From the NCBI RefSeq assembly GCF_024502345.1, contig NZ_JALDNN010000001.1: DNA of 64,000 nucleotides; one strand, 5' to 3'. Made by a program: the position numbers and the translations under genes. Numbering within the stretch: position 1 is the stretch's first letter; every line of letters begins with the position of its first letter. Origin of the DNA: Escherichia coli. GTDB lineage: Bacteria > Pseudomonadota > Gammaproteobacteria > Enterobacterales > Enterobacteriaceae. Shown here piece by piece: positions 598 to 1,751 of the stretch. The notes beneath the pieces were generated by a model, which had not been told where the DNA came from, did not search any database, and saw nothing but the letters and a program-made list of their open reading frames with translations.

Positions 598-1751
598 GTT
601 GATGACTCCTGAAAGTTAATGACGTTTTAAGCTCTGTGAGCGAATTAATGCTTTCGCTCATAATCAGATCTAAAACGGTAATAACTTACAGACGGTATTT
701 ATCAGGCATGCTGTAGCAGAATGGATACGACGGGTTATTAACGACGCGTAGCGTTGTGCTGAAAGGAATAGGTTATCTGATGGCATTGACTAAAGAAATG
801 AGATAAACGAGGAGCGAATAAAATACAGACTCAATAAAACATCACGAAATACTGTAAAATACGCGCTAAAACCCCACTAACTGGCGCATTACGGCCAATC
901 ACATCATAAACTACAAACTTGCTCTCAGTGGTTCTAAAAAAAAACGTGTACAAAGCCAACGCAATAAACTTATACGCCCTCATCCAATCTGTTCTTAAGG
1001 ACATGAACGTTAACCGCACACATTACCAGAGTAAAAAATACCACTGGCATGATTTTTACCCTGCATCTTAAACAATACAACCCGAAACAAACATAATCAG
1101 GAATTCACTCTGTTGATTCTGTTGTTTATCCAGCTCTGTTAAACATGACGGAATCATGGATACTGTATCAAAGAGTAAACATTCAGTTAATCAGTGATGA
1201 CAAAAGAATTGATGTTCACCAGAATAGTTAAAACACTTCAGATAAACAATTATCGTTAAGTAAATACAGTTCATGATAAATAAGATTAAGATCAATTGCT
1301 GTTTCAGTGAAGACTGATAACAGATGGATATTAGCAATAGCGTAGTAGAGAATAGCTTATCTGAATATCATATGAGTTACAGTAATTATGATTGGGGGAT
1401 GGAGTGAATACGATAACAAGAGTAATACTAATGGAATATGTAAAGATTGAGAGTGAGTGAAGACAGGAAATAAATAACAATAGAGATTATATCAAAAAGG
1501 GAGTGAGTATAATAATAGTAATAAACCTAAATTAAAAACATCCATGTTTTATGTAAATACAAATCTGTTTCATAATTATGTACAGAAGTTCGTTATAACG
1601 AATATGTAAATAATTCAGTGTAAGTGCTGCCATATTAAAGGTGATCGCTCAGGTGTCAGCGCCAGCGATAATAAGACGGTCACCATTTGGATTGTCCGCT
1701 CCACCCAACATGTTGTTTCCTTAAGGTTCTCACACCAGAAAGGACATCAAC

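Follow-up and report, generated by a model that had tools for sequence, protein, structure and literature searches.

The AT-rich stretch at positions 600-1700 of the window, i.e. the whole 64-kb stretch of Escherichia coli DNA analysed here, is the upstream region of an island-backbone operon headed by the gene at 31-597, and at its far end it carries a conserved box which is most likely either the activator-dependent promoter or operator of this gene or the recognition site of the predicted nickase that the gene encodes. Taking the data together, we lean, with confidence slightly better than even, towards a reading in which the stretch is the upstream spacer of the backbone operon, the box is its cognate control site and the sequence next to the gene is a leader masking the RBS. 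The earlier note on this DNA gave a sound description of the stretch but overlooked its position upstream of a gene for an HUH nickase and the constrained element at 1494-1536.

Island setting and gene context of the AT-rich stretch

The very low GC content and the foreign origin proposed in the earlier note are both borne out. The GC content at 600-1700 is 0.351 compared to 0.515 for the whole window (sd 0.061 in 1100-nt windows), i.e. 16 points under the surrounding sequence, which makes it the lowest-GC 1100-nt stretch anywhere in the 64 kb, and this AT content far over that of the surroundings occurs in an island context with IS elements. The boundaries had to be revised on the right side: native AT-rich DNA comprises 598-1604, while the part from 1605 onward consists of IS256-family and IS21 remnants (Table 1), with the GC content climbing to 0.48 in the left end of the IS21 fragment. 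The placement at an island edge did not hold, since in strain 210221272, which has an identical copy, the island goes on leftward for about 10 kb up to the yeh fimbrial genes, showing that the segment borders only the window and not the island. We conclude that 598-1604 is horizontally acquired AT-rich non-coding DNA which, judged from its sequence, is plausibly H-NS-coated. In its neighbourhood, 1605-2541 forms a nested IS wreck made of an IS256-family end, an IS21 fragment and an IS256-family transposase fragment; an island-borne H-NS family protein (146 aa, Pfam Histone_HNS) is encoded at 2809-3249 on the minus strand, 1.1 kb from the AT-rich block. The flank at 1554-1604 also adjoins ireA on E. 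coli plasmids.

The segment (1101 bases) matches 1572 of 5426 complete E. coli genomes (29%), of which 510 have 80% or more of the query covered. A genome has up to five copies, nearly all of them chromosomal, and the matching DNA is without annotation in every listed record. A lack of conservation across related islands, named in the earlier note as an argument against its reading, is thus not what is found, and the conservation of the stretch across genomes mostly reflects neutral co-inheritance. No phage DNA similarity to the segment was detected, and the plasmid matches comprise only island fragments and an IS end. One such fragment, present on the E. coli IncK2/Z plasmid pSCU-106-1 and seven similar plasmids (L135:5001-5434), is the equivalent of window 1231-1653; on these conjugative plasmids it lies between a truncating ISEc8 and ireA and keeps the box without the nickase gene. 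The island SpLE1 of O157 Sakai holds an ECs1377-family gene and no copy of the region. A 34-nt exact pattern from 677-710 pulled 96 more copies out of metagenomes, and genome and metagenome copies combined gave 64 unique 1220-nt versions.

The gene at 31-597 is complete, its AUG at 595-597 being preceded by AGGAG 8 nt upstream. The 188-aa protein matches Pfam REP_ORF2-G2P and YagK_YfjJ_C, both below threshold, and comparison by sequence with solved structures returned nothing informative. A fold search gave the rudiviral Rep protein ORF119 as top structural match, and E78, H86xH88 and Y156xxK159 are invariant in an alignment of 18 homologues. We read the product as an HUH-fold protein with the full catalytic set E78, H86, H88 and Y156, i.e. 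a predicted nickase. In every E. coli locus examined, the gene heads a leftward backbone string of nickase, a protein of about 190 aa, an AlpA-family HTH protein, a 41-aa protein, a protein of about 170 aa and an ECs1377-family protein. The islands do not agree in what follows on the right-hand side of the AT-rich stretch, which can be IS debris, dsdA, a sugar kinase or a TIR-like ORF. By tblastn, the gene family was found on islands and large plasmids only, with none on small rolling-circle plasmids or inovirus genomes and with two weak phage hits.

The backbone module borders variable cargo, i.e. Kiwa (kwaAB), contact-dependent inhibition genes, a TIR-like ORF and pap fimbriae, and may mark a cargo hotspot. 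According to the passages available of two reports, the backbone genes of the SRL PAI include Gp2-like and AlpA/Vis-like genes (orf39-orf41; PMC6980539) and the intY/alpA genomic islands have Gp2-like, RadC and YqaJ core genes (bioRxiv 10.1101/2024.08.29.610337). As far as these passages go, both island types resemble the islands described here in pairing a Gp2-like gene with an AlpA/Vis-like gene beside defence or virulence cargo; they differ in that the passages cover genes, mentioning neither an upstream cis element nor an AT-rich spacer. The antitermination model for Pseudomonas aeruginosa AlpA was considered and not transferred: that AlpA has residues numbered to at least 142, while the island protein is 76 aa long, the element bound by the former (GGGACG) is unrelated, and we take the two to be different families.

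Table 1. Positions of the features in the window and, where locus handles are given, in comparison loci
Feature	Position	Strand	Remarks
188-aa gene, read as small HUH (Rep-like) nickase	31-597	-	RefSeq 'inovirus-type Gp2 protein'
Proximal leader, about 120 nt	598-720	-	long imperfect hairpin, predicted to pair SD (AGGAG, plus-strand 606-610) and AUG (595-597)
AT-rich spacer without detectable constraint	721-1389		diversity 0.06-0.32
Hypervariable tract	1390-1505	-	sense strand pyrimidine-rich, C-rich, G-poor; diversity 0.33-0.45
Conserved box, 43 bp	1494-1536	-	sense strand TTTAATTTAGGTTTATTACTATTATTATACTCACTCCCTTTTT; core 1510-1536
Escherichia-specific extension	1537-1553		plus strand ATCCATGTTTnATG; island types diverge beyond
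Flank particular to this island type	1554-1604		at least six flank families in other copies
IS256-family element, end remnant	1605-1653		88-90% matches to ends on Serratia, Erwinia and Salmonella plasmids
IS21 fragment, left end, 5' of truncated istA	1654-1751	+	annotation of identical strain; Pfam rve and HTH matches
Truncated istA	1752-2426		within IS21 fragment (1654-2430)
IS256-family transposase, N-terminal fragment	2413-2541	-	matches the end remnant at 1605-1653
Backbone module beside cargo	L002:1904-3499; L003:1-2160; L005:1-1923; L007:1719-2474; L137:217-1951		
Predicted SD-masking hairpin, sister loci	L021, L022, L026-L030, L035		last 45 nt before ATG

Coding potential, interior divergence and leader structure

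The earlier note had judged the single 62-aa ORF not to be credible and had at the same time suggested that the block may hide small RNAs or small proteins; our data agree with the former and speak against the latter. The ORF (831-1019, minus strand) is the longest in 600-1700 and represents a chance ORF, because shuffles of the same composition give equally long ones (64.7 +/- 16 aa, with 51% reaching 62). It is intact in 1/58 variants, being lost through 11- and 13-nt indels breaking the reading frame, and it has no family, its database relatives being sporadic partial gene calls from this locus only. Among the 58 variants, ORFs of 20 aa or more are not maintained throughout: most are intact in at most 24, with the exceptions 636-716 (plus strand, 43/58) and 1194-1259 (plus strand, 36/58). 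The survival of the former, which encodes 26 aa, is uninformative because this ORF sits in the near-invariant leader. The covariance search that the earlier note had suggested for structured RNAs gave no Rfam match at E <= 1 over window 1-5000 on both strands, and an alifold scan of the alignment detected no conserved fold over 735-1354 on either strand (SCI 0.0-0.5); the high SCI at 585-804 is due to the copies there being 93-96% identical. The segment has no terminator-like site and fewer promoter-like sites than the shuffles. A perfect extended -10 on the minus strand at 1497-1489 (TGATATAAT) is present in this copy but not retained in others. While the region is long, widespread and never annotated, these results make it highly improbable that it conceals an unannotated small RNA or small protein gene. 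Two further candidates were rejected. A search for a pseudogene remnant by tblastn with 20 upstream ORFs of related loci gave nothing better than E 0.4, and the literature passages at hand on PapR, a known sRNA of UPEC islands, do not place it here.

The interior of the stretch (about 721-1390) mostly diverges no slower than the synonymous sites of the neighbouring gene. Diversity is 0.06-0.32 over 721-1390 compared to 0.093 at the four-fold degenerate sites of the nickase gene in the same copy set; between lineages, pairwise pS of three adjacent genes amounts to 0.15-0.33 versus a non-coding divergence of 10-19%. The interior is built of mosaic haplotype blocks, pointing to recombination between islands, and of 11-13-nt indels, and by blastn 721-1389 has no cross-genus homology. 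In other strains, IS3 elements lie 254-278 bp upstream of an intact nickase gene; the short spacer copies found in E. coli are such IS3 truncations and not natural short versions. We regard the bulk of the region as an unconstrained spacer because of this diversity, which is mostly at or above the synonymous level, the recombination mosaic and the tolerated IS insertions.

The sequence directly preceding the gene behaves differently and is, besides the box, the second part of the region under constraint. The 123 nt before the AUG are predicted to fold with an MFE of -36.2 kcal/mol (z -4.3, with 0/200 shuffles as good), the inverted repeat 609-629/671-691 enclosing an inner stem at 638-659, and the hairpin modelled in this way would occlude both the RBS and the start codon. 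Apart from one 12-nt indel, leader diversity is 0.014-0.05, a figure that is partly biased towards low values by the exact search pattern at 677-710 used to collect the metagenome copies; this artefact weakens the argument for a constrained leader. No covariation is seen in the Escherichia leader because it is too invariant. Sister subfamilies have, within the last 45 nt before the ATG, a short local hairpin (UCCUUUGU...ACAAAGGA) predicted to mask the SD, for which a compensatory pair change is seen between the Klebsiella type (UCCUUUG/CAAAGGA) and Cedecea (UCCUCUG/CAGAGGA). Given these hairpins in the sister subfamilies, translational masking looks like a family trait, as far as can be judged from predicted folds.

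The conserved box and the adjoining C-rich tract

We compared the whole upstream region by blastn to 31 orthologue loci of other Enterobacterales (36-57% protein identity), which were obtained from a genome-collection scan and include Klebsiella, Citrobacter, Kluyvera, Serratia, Salmonella, Mixta, Photorhabdus, Buttiauxella, Budvicia, Yersinia and Erwinia. Only the box at 1494-1536 matches other genera (best E 4e-10). A box profile used with nhmmer finds it in 25/31 loci at E < 0.01 and, including weak hits, in 28/31 at the same place; one of the three loci lacking it has too little upstream sequence. In the loci detected by nhmmer, the box occurs once per gene, always on the strand of the gene and upstream of the orthologue. 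The distance from its end to the ATG is 84-279 bp in other genera, 1009 bp in Budvicia and about 900 bp in Escherichia, and what lies upstream of it varies, being a co-oriented 197-aa gene, a divergent 305-aa gene, alpA or AT-rich DNA. Enterobacter wuhouensis has two tandem units of box and HUH gene (L031:2014-4561), each with its own box subtype (box 2014-2051 with gene 2207-2785 and box 3835-3880 with gene 3989-4561), and only one alpA, along with a 207-aa gene, lies between them. In the window the box is single-copy, with 0 copies expected by chance, and it is absent beside a second Gp2-family gene (6217-6948, 243 aa). This minus-strand gene of the Gp2/YagK_YfjJ family has directly upstream a second AT-rich ORF-free stretch of about 1.1 kb (6949-8085, GC 0.369), which has no nucleotide similarity to 600-1700 and no box copy.

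Within the box, a 27-bp core (1510-1536), reading TAAT[A/T]ATAGTAATAAACCTAAATTAAA on the plus strand, is invariant in 63 unique copies except for A/T at 1514 and a single change at 1525, while the columns flanking it vary in about 40% of the copies. This pattern bears on a reading in which segment and box alike are decaying island DNA without function, retained through linkage alone and silenced by H-NS, with a trivial reason for the conservation of the box, e.g. a recombination cold spot or the remnant terminator of a lost upstream gene. Such decay would explain the neutral interior and the free insertion of IS elements, with carriers of truncated copies keeping an intact gene, and in the L020 type the box, together with an inverted repeat and a T-run located 35-50 nt past the stop of the 197-aa gene, indeed resembles a terminator with a long loop. 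It does not account for an invariant 27-bp core between flanks with a diversity of 0.33-0.45, nor for a box kept across genera whose nickases are 36-57% identical, whatever stands upstream of it, and we regard decay as improbable.

The core contains on the sense strand a -10-like hexamer, TATWAT (1517-1512), the A/T at 1514 being its fourth base; most other genera have TATAAT at the aligned position. A promoter at this site is questioned by several features of the same sequences: Budvicia and Yersinia have TGTTAT, without the key A at position 2, inspection of the alignment shows neither a -35 hexamer nor an extended -10 at the box, and consensus scans of the window, L020 and L028 do not call a promoter there. 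In the L020 type, a 7-bp GC-rich inverted repeat (GGGAGTG/CACTCCC) brackets the AT-rich core, with a cruciform z of about -3; this repeat or hairpin is absent in the E. coli, L028, L009 and L017 types, and there is no universal hairpin. Short ACTC/GAGT repeats flank the core. Positions 1521-1528 of the core (AATTTAGG on the minus strand) are shared with the conserved terminal motif of rudivirus genomes, AATTTAGGAATTTAGGAATTT (PMC7156643), a likeness which could be a coincidence in AT-rich DNA.

Downstream of the box in the direction of the gene, the sequence is hypervariable (diversity 0.33-0.45 over 1397-1516). The tract at 1390-1505 has 38 distinct versions of 58-184 nt among 63 copies, and in all 63 its sense strand is C-rich (C/G 4.4-17.5, median 7) and contains 72-79% pyrimidines. 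In the other loci, the sense strand downstream of the box has a C/G ratio above 1 in 27/28, reaching 1.8 or more in 26; for the 100 nt upstream of the box, the ratio is mostly below 1. C-rich, G-poor untranslated RNA has the composition at which Rho loads. This strand-specific composition argues, at the level of sequence, for the DNA after the box working as sense-strand RNA. It could also have arisen by slippage or duplication of one purine-rich unit instead of selection: L006 has four to five tandem copies of GGTGGAGAAG in a purine-rich tract at about 6880-6930 (equivalent to window ~1395-1500), and the tract in the window has degenerate repeats spaced by 50 and 99 nt and beginning with GAGTGAGT (1451, 1501), which are too degenerate for Tandem Repeats Finder, run on 1350-1600, to report anything.

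Models for the box and relation to known systems

In the model that we favour, the box would be a cognate control site, most likely an activator-dependent promoter of the sigma-70 type or an operator. Having neither a -35 nor a TG extension, a promoter at the box would need a protein occupying the invariant 20 bp that precede TATWAT, and this could be an activator or the nickase. A transcript starting at the box would first cross the C-rich, G-poor untranslated tract with its Rho-loading composition and then about 700 nt of AT-rich leader, a candidate H-NS substrate, so that the default state of the operon would be silence, and even a complete transcript would meet a further block, at the level of translation, in the leader hairpin. 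Most of the 1.1 kb would serve as a spacer, its sequence being immaterial. Beyond the missing promoter elements, it speaks against this model that an untranslated leader of 900 nt would be unusually long and that the true promoter could be proximal and unrecognised.

Alternatively, the box could be the DNA substrate of the nickase, i.e. a rolling-circle-type or transfer origin with nick site and binding repeats in easily melted AT-rich surroundings, at which the excised island would be nicked for replication or mobilisation. A specific DNA site is to be expected for the nickase because of its HUH fold and full catalytic set. Apart from the box, no conserved non-coding element is linked to the nickase gene, and the box is always adjacent to this gene in fixed orientation and was duplicated together with it in L031. 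In addition, the invariance runs on over 27 bp, which suits a protein-DNA complex more than a pair of promoter hexamers. The inverted repeat of the L020 type bracketing the core and the flanking ACTC/GAGT repeats would suit an origin as well; the latter are reminiscent of the tetranucleotide repeats to which AAV Rep and MVM NS1 bind. The AATTTAGG sequence shared with rudiviruses also fits, given that a rudiviral Rep protein is the top structural match. However, the inverted repeat is limited to one type, the gene family is missing from small rolling-circle plasmids and inovirus genomes, the resemblances to rudiviruses and parvoviruses are confined to 8-mers and short repeats in AT-rich DNA, and the strand-specific C-rich tract and the predicted SD-masking hairpins point to a role at the RNA level downstream of the box. 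We thus consider this alternative a serious contender, which is nevertheless rather unlikely. Both roles are compatible with each other, since several HUH Rep systems use the same DNA for both: geminivirus and AAV Rep proteins bind origins which overlap their own promoters. As a more speculative extension, to which we give a low probability, box and 188-aa HUH protein would form a self-contained pair of origin and initiator or of oriT and relaxase, with the box doubling as an autoregulated promoter, as origins do in the Rep systems of parvoviruses and geminiviruses.

Comparison to known systems places the region between several types of non-coding DNA. With island DNA silenced by H-NS and Rho it shares low GC, IS debris, a nearby H-NS paralogue, the lack of genes and neutral drift; unlike generic H-NS-silenced filler, it has a fixed partner gene and a cross-genus cis element at its far end. 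The AT-rich ORF-free block itself is ordinary. HUH origins that are at the same time promoter regions are known from the Ff phage intergenic region upstream of gene II, the geminivirus common region and AAV p5. The region described here resembles these in being non-coding DNA directly upstream of an HUH nuclease gene and in having a conserved AT-rich core with a TATA-like hexamer and flanking short or inverted repeats. It differs in that a hairpin occurs in one subtype only, the gene family was not seen on autonomous small replicons, and site and gene are about 900 bp apart in E. coli. RBS-sequestering 5' leaders provide a third parallel, in that the predicted hairpin pairs SD and AUG and the sister subfamilies show a compensatory change, although within E. 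coli the leader varies too little for covariation to show.

If box and protein do form an origin pair, islands regarded as 'cryptic' would replicate by rolling circle or be mobilised once excised, and a large class of enterobacterial islands, found in about 29% of the complete E. coli genomes, would possess such a pair. As a modest new observation, we report that across Enterobacterales the box goes together with an HUH-nuclease gene of the YagK/YfjJ/'inovirus Gp2' group, which is very common and uncharacterised and belongs to the backbone of islands with virulence and anti-phage cargo. The box provides a defined DNA handle on the role of this protein, be it to regulate, nick, replicate or mobilise, and likewise a handle on how such islands stay silent.
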